A stretch of 64,000 nt of DNA, taken from NCBI GenBank assembly GCA_963664705.1, contig OY761556.1:4576001-4640000 (forward strand), in the 5' to 3' direction. The DNA comes from Acidobacteriota bacterium. GTDB lineage: Bacteria > Acidobacteriota > UBA6911. The notes beneath the pieces were generated by a model, which did no database searches, was not told where the DNA came from, and worked only from the letters and a program-made list of their open reading frames with translations. Of the stretch, positions 20,451-37,134 are shown piece by piece. Made by a program: the position numbers and the translations under genes. Each line of letters starts with the position of its first letter. The first letter of the stretch is position 1.

Positions 20451-20917
20451 TGACTTCTGAATTACAGCAAATACCCGGATTTCTTTTTTTTGATCATGTG
20501 GCATTTTCGGTAAAGCCCGGCGAACTGGAAGCCCAGGTTCAAGCCTATAAGACTATGGGCTTCAAAGAACTGCATCGCGAAGACGTGCTTGGCACAGACC
20601 AGGTTCGAGAGGTCCTGCTTCGCGTTGGCGACGGCCCCAACCTGGTCCAACTGATTGAGCCCTTGAATGCCGAATCTCCCGTGGCCAAGCAGATCGAGAA
20701 AAATGGCGGCAAGGGCGGGTTTGCTCATGTCGCCCTGCGCGTTGCCAATATTCAAGTGGCCTTCGATCACCTGAAACAGAACGGCTTCAAACTGATCGAC
20801 AAAGCTCCCCGCCCGGGATCCCGTGGAACGATGGTATTCTTCGTCCATCCCAAAACCACGGAAGCAGCCGCATTCGGTTACCTTCTGGAAGTTGTGCAGG
20901 AGGGCTCCCATGCCTGA
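20447..20917 (+). CDS. mce: Methylmalonyl-CoA epimerase (VOC family)
   Basis: DHVAF, QLIEPL..SPVAK.IEK, HVALRV, PRPGSRG..VFFVHPK; pathway context. Confidence 0.88.
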   Translation: MMTSELQQIPGFLFFDHVAFSVKPGELEAQVQAYKTMGFKELHREDVLGTDQVREVLLRVGDGPNLVQLIEPLNAESPVAKQIEKNGGKGGFAHVALRVANIQVAFDHLKQNGFKLIDKAPRPGSRGTMVFFVHPKTTEAAAFGYLLEVVQEGSHA

Positions 20918-22377
20918 TGCACCAAAACCGGAATCACTGAATGTCGCCCAGGAATTCCCCGCGGTTTCGACAGCCGAGTGGGAACAGGTCATTACCAAGG
21001 ACCTCAAGGGCGGCGATTACGACAAGAAGCTGGTATGGCGGACGGAAGAGGGTATTGCCGTCCGCCCCTACTACCGCAAGGAAAATCTCGCGGGCCTGGA
21101 AGACCAGCTCGAGATGCGCTGCACAAAATCCGATTGGGAATTCGGCCAGGATGCTCAGCCAAAGGCCGACGCCATCCGTGCCGACTTTTTCTATGAAGCG
21201 GGAGCTCACTCCGTGCAGCAGCTCGGATATGCCGTTGCCGCGGGTGTTGAGCGCCTCGCGGACCTAGCCGCAGCCAGCCGGTGCCGTTGCCGCGGGTGTT
21301 GAGCGCCTCGCGGACCTAGCCGCAGCCAAGCCGGTCGAAGCCGCGGCCCGCGAAATCGAATTCGTTTTCGCGGTCGGTTCAAGCTATTTCATGGAAATCG
21401 CCAAACTCCGCGCCGCCCGTCTGCTCTGGGCGCAAGCCGTATCCGCATTCGGATCCAAGGACACGGATGCCTGCACAATGCAGATGCTCGTCCGTACGGC
21501 ACGACGGAACAAAAGCGTCTATGACCGGTACACCAACCTGCTGCGCGTGACCACGGAAGCGCTCTCCGCAGTAATCGGAGGGTGCAGCCGGTTGACCATC
21601 GAGCCATTCGGTTTTGACGATCATATCGCGTTGAACATCCAGCGGATTCTGAAGGAAGAATCCCATATGGATGCAGTCGCTGACCCTGCAGGCGGTTCCT
21701 ATTATATCGAGGCTCTTACCGATTCCCTCGCCCGTGCGGCCTGGAAGCTGTTCCAGGAAACAGAGGCTGCCGGCGGCTACACCAAGGTGCTGAAATCGGG
21801 TGCCATCGACAAAGCTCTTGCCGAGACGCGCGGTTCGCGTGAAAAGGTGCTGAGCGGTCGCCGTCGATCCATGGTTGGAGTAAACAACTTTCCGAATCTG
21901 ATGGAAAAGACTCCAGGGATGGAGGCACCGGCCTCCATGAACAGTCCGCTTCCCCAGTACCGGATTGCGGAGCCATTTGAAAACATCCGGCAGCAGACAG
22001 AGGCATATGCCCGTACTAAGGGCCGCTATCCGAAAGTTCTCCTGCTCAAGCGCGGCGATGTCAAGATGAAGGGAGCCCGCGCGACCTTCTGCTTGAATTT
22101 CTTTGGTTGTGCGGGGTTTGAAATGGCCGAATCCGAAGACTACACGGGGACAGATGCCAACTTGATCATTCTGTGCAGCTCCGATCCCGAGTATCTTCCA
22201 TTCGCGCTGGAAGTCTGTTCCAAGGTAAAGGTTCCGGTCCTGGTGGCCGGCAACCCGAAGGAACAGATTGCGGAATTGAAGGCAGCAGGCGTGCAAGGTT
22301 TCGTCCACGTGTTAAGCGACATGGTTGAAACCCTGACTGAATGGCAGAACAAACTTGGAATGAGGAGCGGGCAATGA
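20910..22377 (+). pseudogene. mutA: Methylmalonyl-CoA mutase small subunit, frameshifted by a 52-nt tandem duplication (possible assembly artefact)
   Basis: N-part EFPAVSTAEWE..I.KDLKG..YDKKLVWRTEEGI; C-part EIAKLRAARLLW, NLLRVTTE, DPAGGSYYIE. Removing 52 nt gives 1416 nt, one 471-aa ORF. Confidence 0.85.
21231..21335 (+). repeat. Direct tandem duplication, period 52 nt
   Basis: GCCGTTGCCGCGGGTGTTGAGCGCCTCGCGGACCTAGCCGCAGCCA(A)GCCGGT at 21231 and 21283; the first copy lacks one A. Confidence 0.95.
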
Positions 22378-24503
22378 AACCGGACTTTACAAAAATCGAC
22401 TATAAGATTCGCCCGCAAACTGCAGCCGTAGCTTCGGAAAACAGGCAACCCTGGATGACGGCAGAGCGGATTCCCGTGAAGCCGATCTACACAGCCGAAG
22501 ACCTCGCCGGCATGGAACACCTGGAGTATGCAGCCGGGATCCCGCCATTCCTGCGCGGCCCGTACTCGACTATGTATTCCATGCAGCCCTGGACAATCCG
22601 TCAGTACGCGGGCTTTTCAACTGCAGAAGAATCCAATGCTTTCTACCGGCGCAATCTCGCCGCCGGTCAGAAAGGCCTCTCGGTGGCATTTGACCTGGCC
22701 ACGCATCGTGGCTATGACTCGGATAATGAGCGCGTGATCGGGGATGTCGGCAAAGCCGGCGTCGCCATCGACTCAATCGAAGATATGAAAATCCTCTTCG
22801 ATCAGATTCCGCTCGGTCAGATGTCGGTTTCGATGACCATGAATGGCGCAGTTCTTCCCGTGATGGCGTTCTATATCGTCGCCGCGGAAGAACAGGGAGT
22901 CAGCACACAGCAGCTGAACGGCACTATTCAGAACGACATTCTGAAAGAGTTCATGGTACGGAACACATACATCTATCCGCCGCTGCCATCGATGAAGATC
23001 ATCGGAGATATTTTCCAATATTGCTCGGCGAATATGCCGAAGTTCAATTGCATATCGATCAGCGGATACCACATCCAGGAAGCCGGCGCGACCGCAGATA
23101 TTGAGCTCGGCTATACGCTGGCGGATGGATTGGAATATATCCGAACGGGAATCAACGCAGGGTTGGATATCGACAGCTTCGCGCCCCGTTTGAGCTTCTT
23201 CTGGGGCATCGGCATGAATCACTTCATGGAGATTGCCAAGATGCGCGCGGCACGCGTCCTCTGGGCAAAACTCATCAAGGGATTCAATCCGAAGAATTCC
23301 AAATCCATGGCGCTGCGCACACACTCCCAAACGTCGGGCTGGAGCCTGGCGGCACAGGATGTGTTTAATAACGTAACCCGGACCTGCGTTGAAGCGCTCG
23401 CGGCAGCACTCGGCCACACGCAATCGCTGCATACCAATGCGCTGGACGAAGCCATTGCGCTGCCGACCGATTTCTCGGCCCGTATTGCCCGCAACACCCA
23501 GATTTACCTGCAGGAAGAAGCGGACATCACGAAAGTGGTCGATCCGTGGGCAGGCAGCTACTACGTGGAATTCCTCACCCGGGAACTGATGCATAAAGCC
23601 TGGCATCACATCCAGGAAATCGAGGCGCTCGGCGGAATGGCCAAAGCCATTGAGACCGGCATCCCCAAGATGCGGATCGAAGAGGCGGCAGCCCGCCGGC
23701 AGGCACTGATCGATTCCGGCAGGGAAACCATCGTGGGCGTGAACAAATACCGGCTGGAAAAAGAAGAGCAGCTTGACGTGTTGATCGTAGACAACCAGGC
23801 GGTCCGCGAATCCCAGCTGCGCCGCCTCGCACAGACAAAGGCTGCCCGCAACCAGTCGGCTGTTGAAGCGGCGCTGGCGGCTCTGACCAAATGCGCCGAA
23901 ACGGGAGAAGGCAACCTGCTGGAACTCTCGATTGACGCGGCAAGAAAACGGGCCACCCTTGGGGAGATTTCCTCCTCACTCGAAAAGGTGTACGGCCGGT
24001 ATCAGGCGGTCAACCGGACCATTTCCGGCGTGTACTCCTCTGAAAGCAAGGGCGATCCTGAATTCCAGAAGGCGCTCGCGATGGCCGATGAGTTTGCCAA
24101 GGCGGAAGGGCGCCGTCCTCGAATCCTGATTGCCAAAATGGGCCAGGACGGGCACGACCGCGGAGCCAAGGTCATCGCTACCGCATTCGCGGATCTCGGG
24201 TTTGACGTCGATGTAGGCCCGCTCTTCCAGACTCCTCGCGAGGCAGCCCGTATGGCCGTGGAAAATGATGTTCACGTACTCGGAGCTTCCAGCCTTGCCG
24301 GCGGACACGCCACGCTGGTGCCCGAAGTGATTTCCGAACTGAAGAAGCTTGGACGCGAAGACATTCTCGTCTTCGTCGGCGGAGTGATTCCTCCCCAGGC
24401 TTACGAAGACCTGTTCAAAGCAGGGGTAACGGATGTATTTGGGCCGGGTTCGGTAATCCCGAAATGCGCCCAGAAAATCCTGACCGCTCTGCTTCAGGCC
24501 TAG
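22374..24503 (+). CDS. scpA: Methylmalonyl-CoA mutase large subunit (AdoCbl-dependent)
   Basis: [18 protein letters not shown]12-binding GQDGHDRG...SSLAGGH...GGVIP. Confidence 0.97.
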
Positions 24504-24513
24504 CCAACGACAT

Positions 24514-24560
24514 AATTCGCGGAATTCGCGGCAAAAAAACCGCCACGAATTCCGCGAATT
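24514..24560. repeat. REP-like palindrome (nonamer AATTCGCGG family), copy 1
   Basis: AATTCGCGGAATTCGCGGC-aaaaaaacc-GCCACGAATTCCGCGAATT (18/19 complementary). Confidence 0.8.
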
Positions 24561-24578
24561 GCACTAACATTCAAACCT

Positions 24579-25607
24579 GTGAGCGAACACCTGAAGAAAA
24601 GCCCCAAACCATCCCCCTCAAGCCGAAGACGATTATCGCTCAATCACTATGTTGATGGCGTTCTCAGCGGCGACCGAATGGTCCTCGCAAGAGCGATTAC
24701 GGTAGTCGAAAGCGAGCTCTCCTCCGACGGCGAGCTTGCGGCGCACTTGCTGGACAGGGTACTGCCGTACTCCGGCAAATCGCGCCGCGTCGGAATCACC
24801 GGCGTCCCCGGCGTCGGCAAAAGCACTTTTATCGACGCACTCGGCATGCACCTGATCCGGGATCTCGGCGAGAATGTGGCCGTCCTCAGCGTCGATCCCT
24901 CCAGCCCGATCTCCCATGGCAGTATTCTTGGCGATAAAACCAGGATGGAACGCCTGTCCGCCGAGGAAAATGCGTTTATTCGCCCGTCTCCCTCCCGCGG
25001 CCATCTGGGCGGCGTAGCGAGGCGTACGCGCGAAACAATCCTTCTGTGTGAAGCTGCCGGCTATCAGAACATCCTCGTGGAAACCGTTGGTGTCGGCCAG
25101 TCGGAAACCGCCGTGCGCTCCATGACAGACTTTTTCCTTCTGCTGATGCTTGCCGGAGCCGGAGATGAACTGCAGGGGATGAAGCGCGGCATCATCGAAA
25201 TGCTGGACGGGATGACCATCAACAAAGCCGACGGTGATAATAAAGCCAAAGCGGAAAGAGCACGCATCGAATATGCAAACGCACTTCACCTGTTCCCTGC
25301 CTCCGCCGATGGCTGGACCCCCTCTGTACTAACCTGTTCGGCGCTCGCCGGAGAAGGTATCGCGGAAGTTTGGCGGACGATACTGGCACACCGCAGCTTG
25401 GTGGAGGGAAACGGATTCCTGCTGCAGCGACGCAGTCACCAGGCACTCGAATGGATGCAGGAACTGGTGATGATCGGCCTTCAAGAGTCATTTGCCGCAG
25501 ATAGCGGCGTGGCATCCCGGCTGCCAATGCTGCAGGAAGAAGTGGAGAAGGGCCAGGTAACCCCGTTTGCCGCAAGCCGCGAACTGCTGAGGATCTTCAG
25601 GAAGTAA
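24579..25607 (+). CDS. meaB: MeaB/ArgK GTPase chaperone of methylmalonyl-CoA mutase
   Basis: GITGVPGVGKST, VDPSS, GDKTRM, ETVGVGQSE, NKADG. Confidence 0.96.
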   Translation: MSEHLKKSPKPSPSSRRRLSLNHYVDGVLSGDRMVLARAITVVESELSSDGELAAHLLDRVLPYSGKSRRVGITGVPGVGKSTFIDALGMHLIRDLGENVAVLSVDPSSPISHGSILGDKTRMERLSAEENAFIRPSPSRGHLGGVARRTRETILLCEAAGYQNILVETVGVGQSETAVRSMTDFFLLLMLAGAGDELQGMKRGIIEMLDGMTINKADGDNKAKAERARIEYANALHLFPASADGWTPSVLTCSALAGEGIAEVWRTILAHRSLVEGNGFLLQRRSHQALEWMQELVMIGLQESFAADSGVASRLPMLQEEVEKGQVTPFAASRELLRIFRK

Positions 25608-27214: not shown

Positions 27215-27832
27215 CTATTTTTTCCGAATCATGTAGATGGGGTGGTCGCAGCTTACCATGACGTTGCCGGTCAGTCGGCACCAGGAGGGCAAGTCCTCCC
27301 TGGCACCGGGGTTTGTGGCCAACAATCGCATAATCTGCCCCGACGGCATTTCTTTCATCCGGTTGCGGAGTTCCAGCACAAGATCTCCACAGCCCATATC
27401 GCCGGCATCCCATTCGGCGCTACAAACAAGGTGGGCGGGCGCTGCAGTATTGCTTCTATTTTGAGGTTCTGTCGTCTGTATCTGTAAATCCGCCTCCGGG
27501 ATGGATAGCGGCCAGAGGCATTGGGGCAGAGCGCCCGGAGCGACGCCTTCATCATTGTTTGCCCAGAGCCACCCCTCATTGTAACAGTTCCGGCTGGTGA
27601 TAAAAGAAGACAGGCGGTCCCGCAAAGTCTCTCTGGAGTGGCCCAGTGAAGTCGAAAGGCACTCGGCGCATTGCGGCGCATTCTTGAAGCCCATGGTCAG
27701 ACTCATGAGCGCTTCATGCCCGCAGATTGCCTGCCCGCATACCCCGCATTGCCTTTCACGTATCTGCCGGAGGTCGCGCAGAAGGGCTTCCGTAACCAGC
27801 TCATCGTCCTGTGGATCGAGTTCATCGTTCAT
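27215..27832 (-). CDS. Cys-rich (CxxC...CxxC) domain fused to a TusA/SirA sulfur-carrier domain
   Basis: CGVCGQAIC...CAEC N-terminus; C-terminal WDAGDMGCG...DLPSWCRLTG TusA-like motifs. Confidence 0.8.
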   Translation of the reverse strand: MNDELDPQDDELVTEALLRDLRQIRERQCGVCGQAICGHEALMSLTMGFKNAPQCAECLSTSLGHSRETLRDRLSSFITSRNCYNEGWLWANNDEGVAPGALPQCLWPLSIPEADLQIQTTEPQNRSNTAAPAHLVCSAEWDAGDMGCGDLVLELRNRMKEMPSGQIMRLLATNPGAREDLPSWCRLTGNVMVSCDHPIYMIRKK

Positions 27833-27870: not shown

Positions 27871-29022
27871 TTATGAATACTTCTCTCGAAGGATGCGCGC
27901 TGCCTTCACAATATTTCCGATTTTGAGGGCGGCACTCTTCTCGTCATTAACACATCGATTTGCAAAGCAGCCAAAGCCGCAATCAGGGTTCAGGAATACC
28001 TGTTCCGGGCGGTAATATTGCAGAGCCCGTTCGGCATTGCGGATAATGGTATCCACGCTTTCCGCCTCATCGGTTCTCGGATTGACGACTCCAAGCCCGA
28101 TTTCGCGATCTGCCAGGGCTTTGCCCACCACCTCCACATCTCCGGCTCGCGGAGTGGCATATTCGAGTACAAACTGTTTCACACCCATTTCCTTGAAGCA
28201 TGGAATCAGCGGCTCATAATCCCCCGACAACAAAACTTCCTCAGAGCGGCTCCAGTTACCGCGGCAGACGTGAAGACCCGTTCGAACACCGGGGATTCCC
28301 TGGACGACCTGATTTAGCAGCTCCGCAGCATATTTTAGTTCGGACCCCGCATCACGGCGGGTTGCCAGGGTCGCTCACATGAAGGTCCGTCGCTGATTTT
28401 CCTGGGAGAAAACAATTTCCGTCAGCACAGGTTCATCAAACTGAACGAATTCGCATCCCTCCTTCGCCAGGTCCTGTAGCTCTTCACGGAGGATCTTCAC
28501 GACATCATTCCCCATTTCCAGCTTGTCGTCATAAACCTTGGAGGTAAAGGCACCCACCCACATGGAGCGCGTAAGCAGGTAGGGTCCCGGCAGTGTCATT
28601 TTTACCGGCTTATCTGTGAGTTGACGGAGGAATCTCAGTTCCTGAACGGCCAGCGGTTCCCGCCGCGACAGCCTGTCGATGCAGGTGGGGTTTCGGATCG
28701 CGGAGGCGGGGACGTCCAGAGTGGAAAGCATTTCCTCAAAACCCGCTTTGTCCTCCACGGTATCCAGCATCTCGGCCAGCGACATCAGGCGCGTTCCGTC
28801 GACCTTGTCCGTAATGAATGAATAAAAATTGTCACGCCGCTGCTCTCCATCCACGACAATGTCCACGCCGGCGTCCAGCTGAGCCTTTACGCATCGCCGT
28901 ACTTCCTCATCCGCAATGACATTAAATGCCTCCCGCGTGATTTCATTCTTCTGTTTTGCCCGCAGGGCTTTGAGCAGATCCCTTGAGCGGGGCCAGCTTC
29001 CAACCTGAGTCACTTCAAACAT
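27871..29022 (-). CDS. Cobalamin-independent methionine synthase II (MetE C-terminal/core) family protein with in-frame UGA, probable selenoprotein (383 aa)
   Basis: ORFs 28375-29022 and 27871-28233 share a frame and are separated only by TGA at 28377-28375 (RRTFM*ATLATRRD). VGSWPR, DGEQRR, QFDEP lie before it; Zn ligands LHVCRGN, LEYA, NPDCGF lie after it. A SECIS-like hairpin follows. Confidence 0.85.
28343..28374 (-). promoter_or_regulatory. Candidate bacterial SECIS element
   Basis: UGA-GCGACCCUGGCAA-CCCGC-CGUGAU-GCGGG-GUC: apical loop 18 nt after UGA with G-U at loop positions 2-3. Confidence 0.7.
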
Positions 29023-29053: not shown

Positions 29054-29797
29054 TCAGACGATCGAAAGTTTGTATTTGATATCCACAGCCTTTTTTAGGG
29101 TAGAGGCAAGCGGCGAACGCTGTACAGTTCGGCCCCAAGCCTCGCGCACTTTCCCTTCATCCGCAAATGAGGAAACAAAACACTTCATTTCAATGGAGGA
29201 TACGGAAGGATCCCCTTCCTCGAGACCAAGATGTGCCAACACATTGTAGAGTTTTCCGCTGACTGTCATCTCAATATCGTCCACCTCGATCCGGCTCCTG
29301 GAACACTCGGTAGCAAAACCGGTCGTTAGATCGCCCACAAGTGCGGCCAACAGATACTCGATTGCACATGGATGTTTGTCGGTCGTTTCAAAACTGGCCG
29401 GCTGGCCCACCTCAATGGAAAAATTGCGGCAATAGACGGTGCTTTTCAGTTTCCCGGTGGAACGAGCGCGTGCTTTCCACTCGTAGTCTTTCGCTCTTCC
29501 CTTATCTTTCTCGAGGCTCTCGTTCTGTTCAGCGGCACGGACTGTCTTGCGAATAAAGTAACGGCTCATTCCTTCCGCTTCAATAAAGCCCAGATATTCC
29601 AACCCCACCATGCGGCACCAGGGCGGCAGATCTCCTCTTACCGTCGGTTCCGAACTGCGCATTTCAAAGATACCCCGTTCCGGAACGCGTAGCATATTCT
29701 CCCGGATCAGAAGAATAAGTCCGGAGCCGCAATCCAGATCCCCCCCGTCAAACATATGATCGGGAGTGATCGATGCAAGATCGACTTTTTCGCTCAT
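29054..29797 (-). CDS. TusA-like sulfur carrier fused to an OsmC-like domain
   Basis: FDGGDLDCGSG and DLPPWCRMVG (TusA); HPCAIEYLLAAL...RSPLASTL (OsmC fold). ATG 29797 after GGTAGGGG. Confidence 0.8.
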   Translation of the reverse strand: MSEKVDLASITPDHMFDGGDLDCGSGLILLIRENMLRVPERGIFEMRSSEPTVRGDLPPWCRMVGLEYLGFIEAEGMSRYFIRKTVRAAEQNESLEKDKGRAKDYEWKARARSTGKLKSTVYCRNFSIEVGQPASFETTDKHPCAIEYLLAALVGDLTTGFATECSRSRIEVDDIEMTVSGKLYNVLAHLGLEEGDPSVSSIEMKCFVSSFADEGKVREAWGRTVQRSPLASTLKKAVDIKYKLSIV

Positions 29798-31347: not shown

Positions 31348-31395
31348 GTCCATCTTTGTCCATTGCCATTCCCATATGGCTTGGAGGTGTCATTC

Positions 31396-32070
31396 GTGAA
31401 GATGACTGTCAGGGAAGCATCTAAGCTGTTTAATGTCTCCGAAAAAACGATTTATCGTTGGATTGAGCAGAAAGGACTTCCCGCCTATCGCATCAACAAG
31501 CAGTTCCGTTTCAACCAGACCGAGCTGTTGGAATGGGCGGCTGCCGGTCGAACCAGCTTCTCGCCAGCTCTTCTGGGCGAGCCTGATTCCAATGCCGCGC
31601 CGCTCCCGGATTTGGTTCAGGCGTTGGCAGCCGGGGGCATACACTACAGAGTGGCCGGCCACGACCGGGATTCCGTACTTCGCAGCGTAGTCGAATTGCT
31701 ACGGCTGCCGGATCATGTCGATCGGGAGTTTCTGCTGGAAGTTCTGTTGGCCCGGGAGGCGCTGGGATCCACAGGAATCGGGGATGGAATCGCTCTCCCG
31801 CATGCACGAAACCCGATTGTCCTGAATGTTGAGCGGCCCACTGTCACCTTGTGTTTTCTTGAGAGCCCCGTGGATTTCGCGGCTCTGGATGGCCAGCCTG
31901 TCACAGTGCTGTTCACGTTGATCAGCCAAACAGTCCGCACGCATCTCCACCTCCTCTCCCGCCTGGCCTTCCTTCTCAACAATAAAGATTTCCGAGAGGT
32001 TCTGAGACGGCAGGAATCCCGGAATGAAATTTTTGATGCAGCCCGTCATGCTATTCAAGGACTACCCTAG
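31396..32070 (+). CDS. Excisionase-type HTH fused to a PTS EIIA (PtsN/fructose-mannitol type) domain
   Basis: MTVREASKLFNVSEKTIYRWI..KGLPAYRI; REALGSTGIGDGIALPHAR (phospho-His); GGAGG RBS with GTG start. Confidence 0.9.
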   Translation: MKMTVREASKLFNVSEKTIYRWIEQKGLPAYRINKQFRFNQTELLEWAAAGRTSFSPALLGEPDSNAAPLPDLVQALAAGGIHYRVAGHDRDSVLRSVVELLRLPDHVDREFLLEVLLAREALGSTGIGDGIALPHARNPIVLNVERPTVTLCFLESPVDFAALDGQPVTVLFTLISQTVRTHLHLLSRLAFLLNNKDFREVLRRQESRNEIFDAARHAIQGLP

Positions 32071-32091
32071 TGCCCTTTCCAAGAGAATGAG

Positions 32092-34071
32092 ATGTCCCTG
32101 ATCTTACTGGCGGTTTTGATACAGCTTCTTTGCGGATCCGCAGCATTTCTGATCCGCCGCAGCGATCGCATGTCCTCCGGTCTTGGAGCCGCGGGACCGG
32201 TGATCGGGTTGCTGCTGGTGTTGTCTCCCGCGTTGAACGCCCTGCGGGGGACTCAGATTCCCGCTATCCGCGCACCCTGGAACATGCCTCTTGGCTCGAT
32301 TGTCCTCGGGCTGGATGGACTTTCCGCAATATTCCTGATTCCGATCCTCGGCTTGGGCGCCTTCGCAGCTATCTATGGGTATGGCTATCTTCGACCCTAC
32401 CGGGAAACCAGATTTCTCGGCACTGCCTGGTTTTTCTTTAACACGCTGATTGCCAGCATGGCGCTGCTGGTACTCGCACGCAGCGTCCTGCTCTTTCTCC
32501 TGGCCTGGGAAGTCATGTCGCTTTCCTCCTTCTTCCTGGTAGCCTTTGAAAGTGAGAAGAGCCAGGCACGGCAGGCAGCCTGGACATACCTGGTCGCAAC
32601 GCATCTGGGAACGGCCTTTCTGCTCGCCATGTTTCTTCTGCTGGGAGCTCATTCGGAGACTCTTGATTTTTCCCAGTTGGGTGGACTGTCTCCTCATCTG
32701 GCCGGATTGTGTTTTGTGCTTGCGGTGATCGGATTTGGCACCAAGGCGGGCATTCTGCCCTTTCATGTGTGGCTGCCCGAGGCGCACCCGGCTGCCCCAA
32801 GCCACGTGTCTGCACTCATGTCCGGCGTGATGATCAAAACCGGGATTTATGGGATTCTGCGCATACTCACCTTTCTCGGACCGCCTCCTGCATGGTGGGG
32901 TCTCGCGCTGATTGCCCTGGGATTGATATCGGGCATTGTTGGCGTGCTGTTTGCCATGGCGCAGCACGATTTGAAGAGACTTCTCGCCTACAGCAGCGTA
33001 GAGAATATCGGCATCATCGTAACGGGCATAGGGGCAGGGCTCTTCGGCATCAGTATTGGATCCCCGGTCCTGTCCATCCTCGGTTTTGCCGGCAGCCTGG
33101 TTCATATCGTCAATCACTCCATATTCAAAGGCCTCCTCTTTATGGGCGCAGGTTCTGTACTGCACAGAACTCATACGCTTGAAATCGACCATCTTGGCGG
33201 GCTAATCAAAAAAATGCCCTGGACCGCCGCCACCTTTTGCATTGGAGCGGTAGCCATCTCGGGGTTGCCTCCGCTGAACGGCTTTGTCAGCGAATTCCTC
33301 ATTTACATGGGCGCATTCAAAGGCGCAACACTGCTCAAAGGCGGATCCACGGTTGCACTCCTTGCGATTATTGCGGGACTCTCTCTGATCGGGGGATTGG
33401 CAACGGCTTGTTTTACAAAGGCATTCGGGATCGTGTTTCTTGGGGAACCGCGCTCCGAGCATACGGCACATGCAGTGGAGTCTGAGAAAAGCCTCCTCCT
33501 GCCCATGGTTCTCCTGTCCGCCGGGTGTCTTGCAGTCGGCTTGACCGGTTTTCAGATTGTCCGGTCGCTGCCATTTGTTCTCAAGGATCTTGTGCCCTAT
33601 GAAGCCGCCGCCATCAGCGCGCAGCTGTCCCTGGCTTCCGGCGCTCTCATTTCTTTTGCAGTTGGCGCTTTGATTTTACTCGCGTTGATTGCCCTGATTG
33701 TGTTTTCCCGTTCCGCGCTTCTGTCCGGCCGCACGGTACGCAGGGCGGGTGTTTGGGATTGCGGCTACATCAAACCAACCGCTCGGATGCAATATACGGC
33801 CTCTTCCTTTTCCCAGCCGCTGATCGATCTGTTCAACGTCTTCCAGCATGGACGCAAGCGGTTCAAGGCACCCAAAGGCTATTTCCCCGCGGCGGCATCC
33901 TTTGAAACCGCTACGTTGGACACATCGAGGGAAAATGTCTACCGGCCCCTGTTTAAAGGTGTCGAAGGAATGCTGGCAAAAATGAAAGTAATGCAGCACG
34001 GACGGATTCAGCTTTACGTTCTGTATATCGTTTTTACTCTGGCCGTCCTGTTGTTTTGGAAACTGCGATGA
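32092..34071 (+). CDS. hyfB: HyfB-like antiporter subunit of Ehr complex
   Basis: WEVMSL, PFHVWLPEAHPAAPSHVSALMSG, WDCGY, MQYTASSF. Confidence 0.9.
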   Translation: MSLILLAVLIQLLCGSAAFLIRRSDRMSSGLGAAGPVIGLLLVLSPALNALRGTQIPAIRAPWNMPLGSIVLGLDGLSAIFLIPILGLGAFAAIYGYGYLRPYRETRFLGTAWFFFNTLIASMALLVLARSVLLFLLAWEVMSLSSFFLVAFESEKSQARQAAWTYLVATHLGTAFLLAMFLLLGAHSETLDFSQLGGLSPHLAGLCFVLAVIGFGTKAGILPFHVWLPEAHPAAPSHVSALMSGVMIKTGIYGILRILTFLGPPPAWWGLALIALGLISGIVGVLFAMAQHDLKRLLAYSSVENIGIIVTGIGAGLFGISIGSPVLSILGFAGSLVHIVNHSIFKGLLFMGAGSVLHRTHTLEIDHLGGLIKKMPWTAATFCIGAVAISGLPPLNGFVSEFLIYMGAFKGATLLKGGSTVALLAIIAGLSLIGGLATACFTKAFGIVFLGEPRSEHTAHAVESEKSLLLPMVLLSAGCLAVGLTGFQIVRSLPFVLKDLVPYEAAAISAQLSLASGALISFAVGALILLALIALIVFSRSALLSGRTVRRAGVWDCGYIKPTARMQYTASSFSQPLIDLFNVFQHGRKRFKAPKGYFPAAASFETATLDTSRENVYRPLFKGVEGMLAKMKVMQHGRIQLYVLYIVFTLAVLLFWKLR

Positions 34072-34085
34072 AACGGGTTTCATAA

Positions 34086-34997
34086 ATGAGCTTACAGTCC
34101 GTAATCCACCCTGCTTTAGCATTGCTGATGGCACCCCTGCTCCTTGGCGTGATCAATCGCGTCAAAGCTGTCTTTGCAGGAAGGACTGGACAGCCGCTGC
34201 TTCAGGCTTATCGCGATATTGTCAAACTCCTTCGCAAGAGCGCCGTCTATAGCCATACGAGTTCATGGGTTTTTAAGGCAGGTCCAACGGTTGGACTTGC
34301 CTCCGTTCTGCTGGCGCTTGCAGTCACACCATTGGGCGGCGCCCAGGCGCTGCTGAATTTTCAGGGAGATCTCCTGCTGCTCGCCTATGTGCTGGGATTA
34401 ATGCGCTTCTTTACGGTGGCAGCCGCATTGGATACGGGATCTGCTTTTGAAGGAATGGGGGCCAGCCGCGAAGTTCAATTTTCTGCCCTGGCGGAACCCT
34501 GCCTGTTTTTATGTATGGCGGCCATCGCATGCAAGATGCAGAGTATTTCGCTCTCCACCATGATCCCTGGAATGAATCTCGGAACATGGCTCCAGGAGGG
34601 TCCTGCGCTGGCCATGATCGCGGTGGCAATGATGACGGTCCTCCTTGCGGAAAACGCCCGTATTCCGGTCGATGATCCCAATACACATCTTGAACTGACG
34701 ATGATTCACGAAGTCATGGTCTTGGACCATTCCGGGCCCGATCTGGCATTTATCCTGTATTCCTCCGCACTGAAACTCTGGGTCCTGGGAGCGCTGCTGG
34801 TCGGAATCATTCTTCCGGTTCGCACAGGAAATCTGCTGATCGACATTCCTGCGGCACTGGCGGGAATGTTGTTTATAGCAATCGTGATTGGAGTCATCGA
34901 ATCCACAACGGCCAGGCTCCGCTTACTCCATATTCCCCAGCTCCTGGTGGGAGCCGCGGTCATTGCCGTGATCGCGCTCATTCTTATCCTGAGGTGA
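34086..34997 (+). CDS. hyfC: HyfC/NuoH-like membrane subunit
   Basis: GRTGQPLLQAYRDIVKL, ENARIPVDDPNTHLELTMIHE. Confidence 0.9.
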   Translation: MSLQSVIHPALALLMAPLLLGVINRVKAVFAGRTGQPLLQAYRDIVKLLRKSAVYSHTSSWVFKAGPTVGLASVLLALAVTPLGGAQALLNFQGDLLLLAYVLGLMRFFTVAAALDTGSAFEGMGASREVQFSALAEPCLFLCMAAIACKMQSISLSTMIPGMNLGTWLQEGPALAMIAVAMMTVLLAENARIPVDDPNTHLELTMIHEVMVLDHSGPDLAFILYSSALKLWVLGALLVGIILPVRTGNLLIDIPAALAGMLFIAIVIGVIESTTARLRLLHIPQLLVGAAVIAVIALILILR

Positions 34998-35647
34998 TGA
35001 ATATGCATGAATGGCTGGAACTTGTAACAGTGCTGCTCTTCCTCACCAACCTGGCCATGCTCGGTCTGAGCGAATTGGGGGCCTGTGTACGCACGGTTGC
35101 CATTCAAGGAATCCTTCTGGGTGTTTTCACGCTGATTGCCCGGGAAGACGGCCTGTCTGCACGATTGCTTATCCTCAGCCTATTGAGCATTGGACTCAAA
35201 GGTTTTGTCTTCCCGTTCCTGCTGCTGCGAAGCATTCGCGAGGCCGGCGTGCGTCGCGAAGTCGAGCCATTCGTGGGTTATGTCACTTCCATCATTGCCG
35301 GCCTGGGCATGCTGGCCGCCGCAATCTGGCTATCCGGGTACATCCCGGTGCCCTTGACGGGAATGTCCTCTTTTCAGATACCGGTCGCCCTTTCGACTAT
35401 TTTCACCGGGTTGTTTCTCGTCATTAGTCGAAGAAAAGCCCTGAATCAGGTCATCGGGTATCTTGTCTTTGAAAGCGGGATCTACCTGTTCGGCATCACC
35501 GCAGTAGGAGAAATACCTTTTCTCGTCGAGTTTGGAGTTCTGCTGGACGTGTTCGTGGCGGTATTCGTAATGGGGATTGCGATGAATCATATCAATCGCG
35601 AATTTGATCATATTGATGCCGATCAGCTCAGCTCATTGAAAGGTTAG
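34994..35647 (+). CDS. hyfE: HyfE-like membrane subunit
   Basis: RRKALNQVIGYLVFE, VEFGVLLD. Confidence 0.88.
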   Translation: MMNMHEWLELVTVLLFLTNLAMLGLSELGACVRTVAIQGILLGVFTLIAREDGLSARLLILSLLSIGLKGFVFPFLLLRSIREAGVRREVEPFVGYVTSIIAGLGMLAAAIWLSGYIPVPLTGMSSFQIPVALSTIFTGLFLVISRRKALNQVIGYLVFESGIYLFGITAVGEIPFLVEFGVLLDVFVAVFVMGIAMNHINREFDHIDADQLSSLKG

Positions 35648-35655
35648 CTCTGGAT

Positions 35656-37134
35656 ATGGATAACGCCCTGCTGATCGGATTACTGCTTGTTGTCCCCTGC
35701 GCCGGCGGAGCCATCAGTGCATCCATGCGCAAGCCCCGTGGTATTCTCGCGGCGATGTGTACCGCCGTTGGCCTCTGGGCATTGGTGGCCGGCACCGTCA
35801 GCGGGCGCGCATTCCTTGGAGGTCCTTTCCAGGCCGCCGACGGTGCAGTCTATGTCGATGCGCTGTCTGCCTATCACCTTGGCGTAATGATAGTGGTCTT
35901 CGTCGCTGCTTCCCTGTTTGCCATCGGCTACTTCAACCGGGAACTCGATGCCGGACACATCTCCCCCAGAGGGCTGCGCCAGTTTGCCGGATTATGGTGC
36001 GGTTCTCTCGCTGCCATGACCCTGTCGCTGATTTCCAACAACCTCGGGATCATGTGGGTCGGGATTGAGGCAACAACACTGCTTACGGCTTTCCTGATCT
36101 GCATACCCCGGAAGCGGGCATCCCTGGAAGCGATGTGGAAATACCTGATGATTTGCTCGATCGGAGTGGCATTTGCCTTTCTCGGCACGCTGATCATTGC
36201 CATGTCTTCGAGTGGTATCCACATGGGGCTATCCAAAGCGCTCCTCTGGACCGAGTTACTGAATAGCGCCTCCATTCTGAATCCGAAGCTTTTGAAGCTG
36301 GGGTTCCTATGCCTTCTCGTCGGCTATGGTACAAAGGCGGGATTGGCGCCCATGCACAGCTGGTTGCCGGATGCCCACAGCCAGGCACCGGCCCCCGTTT
36401 CCGCCATGTTCTCCGGATTCATGTTGAATGCAGCGCTTTACTGCATCCTGCGGTATGTTCCGATTGTTGAAAAGGCGACGGGTCGAGTGGGCTGGAGCCT
36501 CGAGCTGCTCGCGTTGTTCGGTATCATCTCCATTCTTGTTGCTGCAGCCTTCATTGTCTTTCAGCGCGATGCAAAAAGGCTGCTCGCATATTCCAGCGTG
36601 GAACACATCGGGATCATCACCCTTGCTTTCGGACTGGGAGGCATTGGGACTTTCGCGGCGCTATTCCATACCCTGAATCACTCCATCTGTAAATCACTGG
36701 CCTTCTTCGCGACGGGAAGACTGGGACAGACCTACGGCTCTTACGACATGACGAAGATGTCCGGATCGGTTGCGGGGGCTCCCGTGTGGGGGCGCGGATT
36801 ATTCGGAAGCCTGCTCACGCTGATCGGCGTGGCACCCTTTGCAATTTTCATGAGCGAATTCCAGGTTTTGAAAGCAGCCATGGATAAACACTGGACACTC
36901 GGAGTCCTTTTGTTTTTGGGCGGAAGCGGAGTGGTGTTTGTCGGTGCGCTCCGGCACGCGATCGCAATGGCCTGGGGCAAGCCCAGCCCGGTTGCAGCAC
37001 AGGAACAGGCCGGAGTCATTGAAAAGGCCCTTGCGTTTGTGCCTTTGCTGATTCTGCTTGGCCTTGGCCTCTGGATACCCGGGCCGCTCCTTCATTTGCT
37101 GAAGCAGGCTGCATCCATCCTGGGGACATACTGA
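35656..37134 (+). CDS. hyfF: HyfF-like antiporter subunit
   Basis: EATTL, EAMWKY, PMHSWLPDAHSQAP, YSSVEH. Confidence 0.9.
   Translation: MDNALLIGLLLVVPCAGGAISASMRKPRGILAAMCTAVGLWALVAGTVSGRAFLGGPFQAADGAVYVDALSAYHLGVMIVVFVAASLFAIGYFNRELDAGHISPRGLRQFAGLWCGSLAAMTLSLISNNLGIMWVGIEATTLLTAFLICIPRKRASLEAMWKYLMICSIGVAFAFLGTLIIAMSSSGIHMGLSKALLWTELLNSASILNPKLLKLGFLCLLVGYGTKAGLAPMHSWLPDAHSQAPAPVSAMFSGFMLNAALYCILRYVPIVEKATGRVGWSLELLALFGIISILVAAAFIVFQRDAKRLLAYSSVEHIGIITLAFGLGGIGTFAALFHTLNHSICKSLAFFATGRLGQTYGSYDMTKMSGSVAGAPVWGRGLFGSLLTLIGVAPFAIFMSEFQVLKAAMDKHWTLGVLLFLGGSGVVFVGALRHAIAMAWGKPSPVAAQEQAGVIEKALAFVPLLILLGLGLWIPGPLLHLLKQAASILGTY

Follow-up and report, generated by a model that had tools for sequence, protein, structure and literature searches.

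A probable MetE-fold selenoprotein family with two alternative sets of partner genes

Closest described systems and the gene in the window

Among the described proteins of the MetE fold, the closest to the gene considered here is MesD (3RPD), a lone MetE catalytic barrel that needs a partner gene and whose Ser, Glu and Asp are named as homocysteine-binding residues in the accessible text of Price et al. (2021; PMC7857596). The C-terminal barrel of Thermotoga maritima MetE (1XDJ/1T7L) has the same fold and catalytic residues. As far as the consulted parts of two sources go, selenocysteine (Sec) serves redox or thiol chemistry in most selenoproteins (PMC13188914; PMC1976440). The selenoprotein lists checked show no counterpart on this fold: Table 1 of a 2026 review gives 119 prokaryotic selenoprotein families without a PF01717/MetE family, and the families that this review credits to Haft and Tolstoy (2025), as given by those credits, include no MetE-like one (PMC13188914). 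The terms methionine synthase, MetE and homocysteine do not occur in the main text and four supplements of deep-Sep (PMC12013277), in the main text of BSepDB (PMC13326102, the supplement being a genome list) or in the accessible text of SelCysML (PMC13745706), the Olavius paper (PMC1976440) and the GOS paper (PMC2398784). Likewise, a term search of the accessible text of PMC7857596 did not return the word selenocysteine, and the NCBIfam selenoprotein models include no MetE-like family. Literature searches, whose scope did not extend to subscription journals, bioRxiv supplements and RefSeq annotation, gave no relevant match.

The window, as we call the whole stretch of DNA analysed, comprises 64,000 nucleotides of an Acidobacteriota bacterium (GCA_963664705.1, contig OY761556.1, positions 4,576,001 to 4,640,000). 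An earlier note, made from its letters alone, had proposed a gene hidden as two ORFs, split by one TGA (28377-28375) in an otherwise open frame. This was borne out: the frame at 27871-29022 on the minus strand encodes 383 residues with a single in-frame TGA in the context RRTFM-U-ATLATRRD, and calling with translation table 11 cuts it into ORFs of 215 and 120 aa. Because standard gene calling splits the Sec-form gene in this way, such genes are missing from protein-level surveys. The features discussed below are as follows.

27871..29022, minus strand: predicted Sec-type MetE-fold gene, 383 aa, catalytic domain only, with Sec at 216 (PF01717, structure match, invariant residues)
28375..28377, minus strand: in-frame TGA, codon 216, very probably read as selenocysteine (codon column of the homologues)
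28346..28361, minus strand: CCCGC-CGUGAU-GCGGG hairpin, a putative bacterial SECIS element whose loop starts 18 nt past the UGA (SECIS model criteria, silent-site constraint)
29054..29797, minus strand: TusA-like domain (C23, C61) fused to an OsmC-fold domain, the conserved upstream partner (ORF caller start TTG 29860)
27215..27832, minus strand: Cys-rich N-terminal domain fused to a TusA-like domain, replacing the stand-alone TusA gene of close relatives

The full-length protein matches PF01717 with 110.9 bits against a cut-off of 21, and its AlphaFold model has a mean pLDDT of 89.8. The structure it resembles most is MesD 3RPD (23% identity; Z 38.9, with an rmsd of 2.2 Å across 319 residues), followed by T. 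maritima MetE. Seven residues, S9, E60, D196, H251, C253, E287 and C348, are invariant in every covering locus (161-170 rows); the first three correspond to the Ser/Glu/Asp pocket and the other four are the Zn ligands. As the earlier note had predicted, all four ligands lie 3' of the TGA. With pocket and Zn site intact, the enzyme is likely to bind an amino acid of the homocysteine type. All NCBIfam methionine-synthase models score below cut-off (best 189.7 vs 406 bits), the full-length MetE model TIGR01371 scores 97 bits against a cut-off of 929.95, and none of the NCBIfam selenoprotein models matches. At 383 aa the protein has no N-terminal folate-binding barrel, and the only two longer matches in the family bear other extensions.

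Profile alignment to 3RPD reveals about 20 extra residues after FDEP, which carry U216, and a second insert near residues 79-105. Aligned to MesD and MetE, and with the four canonical ligands invariant, position 216 is thus an extra residue in an inserted loop and not a canonical Zn ligand, in agreement with the earlier note. In a TIM barrel, the loop after a barrel strand faces the catalytic side. The U216 loop has a mean pLDDT of 53, with residues 217-219 below 50; it is the least certain region of the model, so that its nearness to Zn is only inferred. Sec216 may be a catalytic nucleophile or redox residue, as the earlier note suggested. The same genome also encodes a second lone MetE-like gene (G000:C1:2864394-2865428; 24-25% identity) with all Zn and pocket residues and no Cys or Sec at 216. 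Elsewhere in the window, an HTH-PTS IIA regulator, identified by profile scanning, starts a plus-strand stretch at 31363-37134 whose following genes we take to be a hydrogenase-4/Ech-type membrane operon, and the genes at 20823-25607 are presumably methylmalonyl-CoA mutase-like.

Codon 216, its hairpin and the selenocysteine machinery

Codon 216 was compared across 170 loci. Besides the window itself, these are 80 retained from the 120 genome loci that a search with the window protein gave, 9 loci out of a 400-genome sample from the phylum to which the window belongs, and 80 retained from the 95 metagenome loci that matched a Cys-form query. The codon is TGA in 99 loci, TGC in 55 and TGT in 16 (71 Cys loci) and no other codon occurs, these counts not being natural frequencies because the loci were seeded by chosen queries. 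The 99 TGA loci contain 96 distinct 60-nt contexts. Among the best 120 of 7,995 protein matches, 119 have Cys at this position and the remaining one (P0002) has a 6-residue gap spanning the codon; the TFM-x position is therefore held by Cys in the alignable homologues and not by Trp or a variable residue. Among the matches listed in the protein search, every complete homologue is a Cys form. Over the matched stretch, the 89 genome loci have no additional stop, with one locus (L074) lying in two pieces. Two contig sets covering the gene show no TGG, TGC or TGT at codon 216 and zero letter differences across the gene; possibly drawn from the window DNA's own source sample, they are not independent support.

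At least 98 other loci carry the TGA, including those of the cultured strains Desulfopila aestuarii DSM 18488 and Fundidesulfovibrio agrisoli SG106. By record title they span at least nine phyla: Acidobacteriota, Armatimonadota, Planctomycetota, Chloroflexota, Calditrichota, Bacteroidota, Eisenbacteria, Thermodesulfobacteriota and Pseudomonadota. The nearest relatives of the window gene (81-85%) are from Acidobacteriota, and in the unbiased phylum sample the family is present in 10 of 401 genomes, two of them with TGA. Furthermore, in a quick tree of 129 rows (midpoint root; L069 excluded as too short) a long branch (SH-aLRT 100) sets off a side with all 72 TGA rows, and 13 rows labelled Cys, one of them wrongly, are nested within that side; P0002 is labelled Cys in this tree despite the gap over its codon. 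With the TGA rows together and Cys rows nested among them, the topology fits a single gain of Sec followed by later reversions to Cys.

The earlier note had also described a SECIS-like hairpin with its loop 18 nt past the UGA and G at loop position 2, and both the geometry and the constraint on silent sites in relatives agree with this. According to the accessible text of PMC13188914, bacterial SECIS elements have a loop of 3-9 nt, a stem of 4-16 bp, G in the first two loop positions, a spacing of 16-37 nt and a minimum free energy of at most -7.5 kcal/mol. The window hairpin, with a 5-bp stem, a 6-nt loop, G at loop position 2 and a local fold of -9.4 kcal/mol, falls within all these limits. 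A formate dehydrogenase-type TGA in the window genome is likewise followed by a hairpin loop at 18 nt. In single-sequence folding the hairpin was not above chance relative to shuffled sequences (z between +0.20 and -0.60 in four folding windows, the two shorter of which favoured a rival GACCC/GGGUC stem), so that support for the hairpin comes from comparing relatives. Third-position entropy is 0.16-0.94 bits at the five four-fold codons of the hairpin, compared with 1.40-1.97 at 13 flanking four-fold codons. Thr+5 is encoded by ACC in 96 of the 99 TGA loci, and Arg+7 only by CGT or CGG (90/90). A fold of -6 kcal/mol or below forms from the segment in 91 of the 99 TGA loci; among Cys loci, this holds for 12 of the 65 distant ones and none of the six close ones. 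One stem pair is G-C in 82 loci and G-U in 17, and another shows a compensatory change from C-G to A-U in one locus, these substitutions not being independent events since the rows share ancestry. In addition, position +9 is Pro in 105 of 120 Cys proteins, so that the 3' arm of the hairpin cannot be supplied there, and Ala, Val or Ser in Sec forms. Judged by this pattern of constraint, the hairpin is under selection. Eight Bacteroidales-type TGA loci (L015, L018, L019, L024, L026, L056, L060 and L074) break the standard stem and carry a CCGGUC-AGAUGCA-GAC type of sequence after the UGA, which may represent another SECIS class. A promoter and terminator scan remained at chance level.

The machinery for Sec insertion, whose genes the earlier note had proposed looking for, is present twice in the window genome: selA, selB, selD (a TGA in one copy) and tRNA-Sec each occur in two copies (over cut-off or with a TCA anticodon). 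One set is clustered at G000:C1:3072605-3079058, together with an ArsM-like methyltransferase that has its own in-frame TGA (WST-U-IAGA), and the second is scattered elsewhere. ARAGORN reports a third tRNA with a TCA anticodon at G000:C1:1625651-1625722 (minus strand); it is only 72 nt long and lies outside the RF01852 matches, and may be either spurious or an unusual reader of UGA. Of the 71 genomes with TGA loci, 41 were tested and 39 have selA; one of the two selA-negative genomes has sel-gene matches within its own locus. The presence of selA is by itself weak evidence because of the high phylum baseline of 296 in 401 genomes, a tally that, like the family count of 10/401, includes three unpublished genomes (G048, G146 and G023) whose sequences were not used. 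Genomes with Cys forms have selA in 7 of 8 cases in the window's phylum and in 8 of 9 Poribacteria. Since they are not enriched over the baseline, the idea that the whole family tracks selenium use is unsupported, and a selenium-specific role is weakened.

Selenium genes also occur beside the Sec loci (selA in 6, selB in 7, selD in 5 and yedF in 5 of 99). Near the enzyme, 5 of the 99 Sec loci have ArsM-like proteins with an in-frame TGA of their own, and L017 has a Sec-lyase-like gene. The enzyme gene adjoins sel genes in five loci (L017, L019, L024, L062 and L063; genomes G412, G414, G417, G432 and G433). None of 13 formate-dehydrogenase-like matches in those five genomes has an in-frame stop, and two of the SelD neighbours read Cys; the Sec MetE-fold enzyme may therefore be a main client of their Sec machinery, to judge from gene content. 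A SenA/EgtB-type gene follows the Cys-form cassette in L095, L122, L123 and L150, and the L123 protein passes the cut-off for the selenoneine synthase SenA.

Altogether, the same TGA and the same hairpin recur in at least nine phyla and relatives have Cys at the position, which makes a selenium-containing enzyme very likely. Codon 216 is almost certainly read as selenocysteine, which would yield a full-length MetE-fold selenoprotein.

Partner genes and candidate chemistries

The earlier note did not mention partner genes; at most Sec loci the gene order is TusA, DsrE, TusA-OsmC and enzyme. DsrE is found in at least 81 of the 99 Sec loci and an OsmC-like domain in at least 84, as well as in at least 39 of the 71 Cys loci, all partner counts being lower bounds because the flanks vary from 1.5 to 6 kb. 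Seven proteobacterial Sec loci have no TusA-OsmC within 6 kb. In the window, TusA-OsmC lies upstream and the Cys-rich-TusA fusion downstream. The Cys-rich domain (27470-27832, minus strand) contains CxxC-x4-CGHE, CxxC and two further Cys; it had no Pfam match, only unnamed clusters were returned from a protein atlas, and it occurs in 10 of 99 Sec loci and none of the 71 Cys loci. The DsrE orthologue of the window genome lies about 330 kb away (G000:C1:4933010-4933372; 89% to that of L008), just downstream of a 348-aa unannotated ORF. C23 and C61 of the TusA domain are invariant in 40 of 40 rows, and this domain is fused to the enzyme itself in L101 and P0122. The OsmC-fold domain has the PF02566 fold, with OsmC-like top matches in Foldseek; its S228-P229 is nearly invariant, Cys at the first catalytic site occurs in only 5 of 40 rows, and the other site is mostly Ala, Asp or Ser.

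The Cys forms keep different company. TusA and DsrE are rare near them (5-6 of 71) and are thus not universal partners. Instead, 39 of 71 Cys loci have an OsmC-like protein alone, without cysteines. An acyl-CoA-dehydrogenase-like gene accompanies 35 of 71 Cys loci against 0 of 99 Sec loci, and a binding-protein-like gene with an invariant Cys accompanies 50 of 71 against 2 of 99. The best models for these two genes are the Rv1679 family NF049984 (373.6/600) and the Rv1680 family NF049985 (255/400), both below cut-off, and a literature search found no paper naming both families. No corrinoid, folate-binding or MesX gene was found among the recurring neighbours examined; for DUF1852 (MesX), this extends to 93 scanned neighbour ORFs. 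These data very likely describe a real MetE-fold selenoprotein family, absent from the selenoprotein lists checked and served by two alternative partner sets.

The intact Zn site and pocket, the absence of a methyl-donor domain or recurring gene, the strict Sec/Cys at 216 and the Cys-pair or flavin partners together point to a covalent sulfur or selenium intermediate on residue 216. In the reading that we prefer, and to which we assign a probability of roughly 0.45, Sec216 would be a covalent catalyst in S/Se transfer between a homocysteine-type substrate and the cysteine pairs of the TusA-like and DsrE proteins. SelB would, with near certainty, recode the UGA on this hairpin. Zn would then grip the substrate thiolate or selenolate, as in MetE, and the flexible insert would swing U216 over the Zn site to form a selenenyl-sulfide or diselenide. 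In Sec forms the TusA C23/C61 pair and the CxPC of DsrE would resolve this intermediate and carry the S/Se group, a job that the flavoprotein and the cysteine-bearing binding-protein-like partner would take in Cys forms, and the cysteine-less OsmC-fold protein would act as a standing subunit. Several observations count against S/Se transfer: methyl transfer is what the fold is known for and all the residues that it requires are retained, DsrE is about 330 kb off in the window genome, TusA and DsrE are rare near Cys forms, and the pLDDT of the loop is low.

Methyl chemistry is the subject of the main alternative, which we regard as rather unlikely. Here Sec216 would stand in for a corrinoid and carry the methyl group transiently, and the enzyme would act as a methyltransferase or demethylase, converting homocysteine to methionine with an unknown donor or demethylating methionine, selenomethionine or methylated selenium. 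The closest folds are all methionine synthases, and the invariant homocysteine and Zn residues suit it as well. ArsM-like selenoprotein methyltransferases near 5 of 99 Sec loci, an SAH hydrolase and a homocysteine S-methyltransferase upstream in L067, and a window genome with pieces but no full metH over cut-off point the same way. The recurring partners, however, are cysteine-pair and flavin proteins and not methyl donors, and metH is over cut-off in 21 of 41 TGA genomes (30 of 41 match at 1e-60). Moreover, methylation of Sec or Cys usually leads to a dead end.

An ordinary core methionine synthase of the Mes type, with Sec/Cys216 only a protective redox switch or spare Zn ligand that the partners keep reduced, appears improbable. 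All Mes-family functional residues are present and MesD is the best structural match, but the scores are far under every methionine-synthase cut-off, all 170 loci have C or U at residue 216, which makes it as strict as the Zn ligands, and retention of a costly Sec codon over nine phyla would better suit a catalytic role. Still less probable is a metal(loid) enzyme in which arsenic or mercury compounds are bound or cleaved by Sec216 together with the metal site and the TusA-like domains shuttle the metal. ArsM-like and ArsR-rhodanese genes lie nearby in 5-6 loci each, and several selenoproteins in Table 1 of PMC13188914 act on metals; against this, the amino-acid pocket is intact and the examined recurring neighbours included no ars or mer efflux or reductase genes. 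A pseudogene, a sequencing error or a TGA read as Trp, which the two table 11 ORFs and a hairpin that alone is not above shuffles might suggest, is refuted by the codon column of 170 loci (the same TGA in 98 others, never Trp, no other stops) and by the fully conserved C-terminal half, and the upstream TusA-OsmC gene itself terminates at TGA.

Returning to S/Se transfer, it may form part of a wider picture, which we offer tentatively: an undescribed, widespread selenium-dependent pathway in which a MetE barrel has been recruited for Sec-catalysed S/Se transfer or demethylation acting on amino acids of the homocysteine/methionine type, with two interchangeable service modules (TusA/DsrE with Sec; flavoprotein and binding protein with Cys). 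In some Bacteroidales and Proteobacteria it might be a main reason for keeping the whole Sec machinery. The selenoprotein lists checked would gain both a family and a fold, and with at least 98 further TGA loci the MetE-fold Sec family is not rare. Within a large, uncharacterised subfamily of MetE-like proteins that by default bear the label 'methionine synthase', the Sec/Cys swap points to residue 216 as the likely catalytic handle, and the natural Cys forms make the role of lone MetE barrels directly testable.

Comparison with described systems

The partner proteins resemble TusA (PF01206), DsrE and OsmC/Ohr (PF02566) in fold. The usual TusA motif is CPxP, whereas the partner TusA domains read CGSG and keep a second Cys. 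OsmC/Ohr peroxidases have a canonical motif with two catalytic Cys, whereas the partner OsmC domain has Ser-Pro and mostly Ala, Asp or Ser at these two sites. The Rv1679-family acyl-CoA dehydrogenase and the Rv1680-family SBP-like protein, the best matches of the Cys-form partner genes, accompany Sec forms in 0 and 2 of 99 loci, respectively.

Like the Sec/Cys-pair selenoproteins described in the accessible parts of PMC13188914, the family has an in-frame UGA where homologues conserve Cys, together with a bSECIS hairpin and Sec machinery; it differs in its motif, which is TFMU and not of the UxxC/CxxU type, and in its fold, a Zn barrel. Compared with T. maritima MetE, the window protein has 383 aa against about 760, has no folate-binding barrel at its N terminus and carries the extra Sec/Cys. 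MesA, MesB and MesC are marked by close similarity to the characterised enzymes and by methanogen or Wood-Ljungdahl hosts; compared through NCBIfam models and hosts, the present family scores below all methionine-synthase cut-offs and has a broad host range. The likeness is greatest to MesD, with the same lone barrel, Zn ligands, Ser/Glu/Asp pocket and need for a partner gene in the accessible text of Price et al. (2021). The 23% identity to 3RPD is below the MesD criterion of about 55%, and the recurring neighbours are without MesX. The window family is further set apart from MesD by the insert of about 20 residues that bears C/U216, by the second insert near 79-105 and by its many anaerobic hosts.
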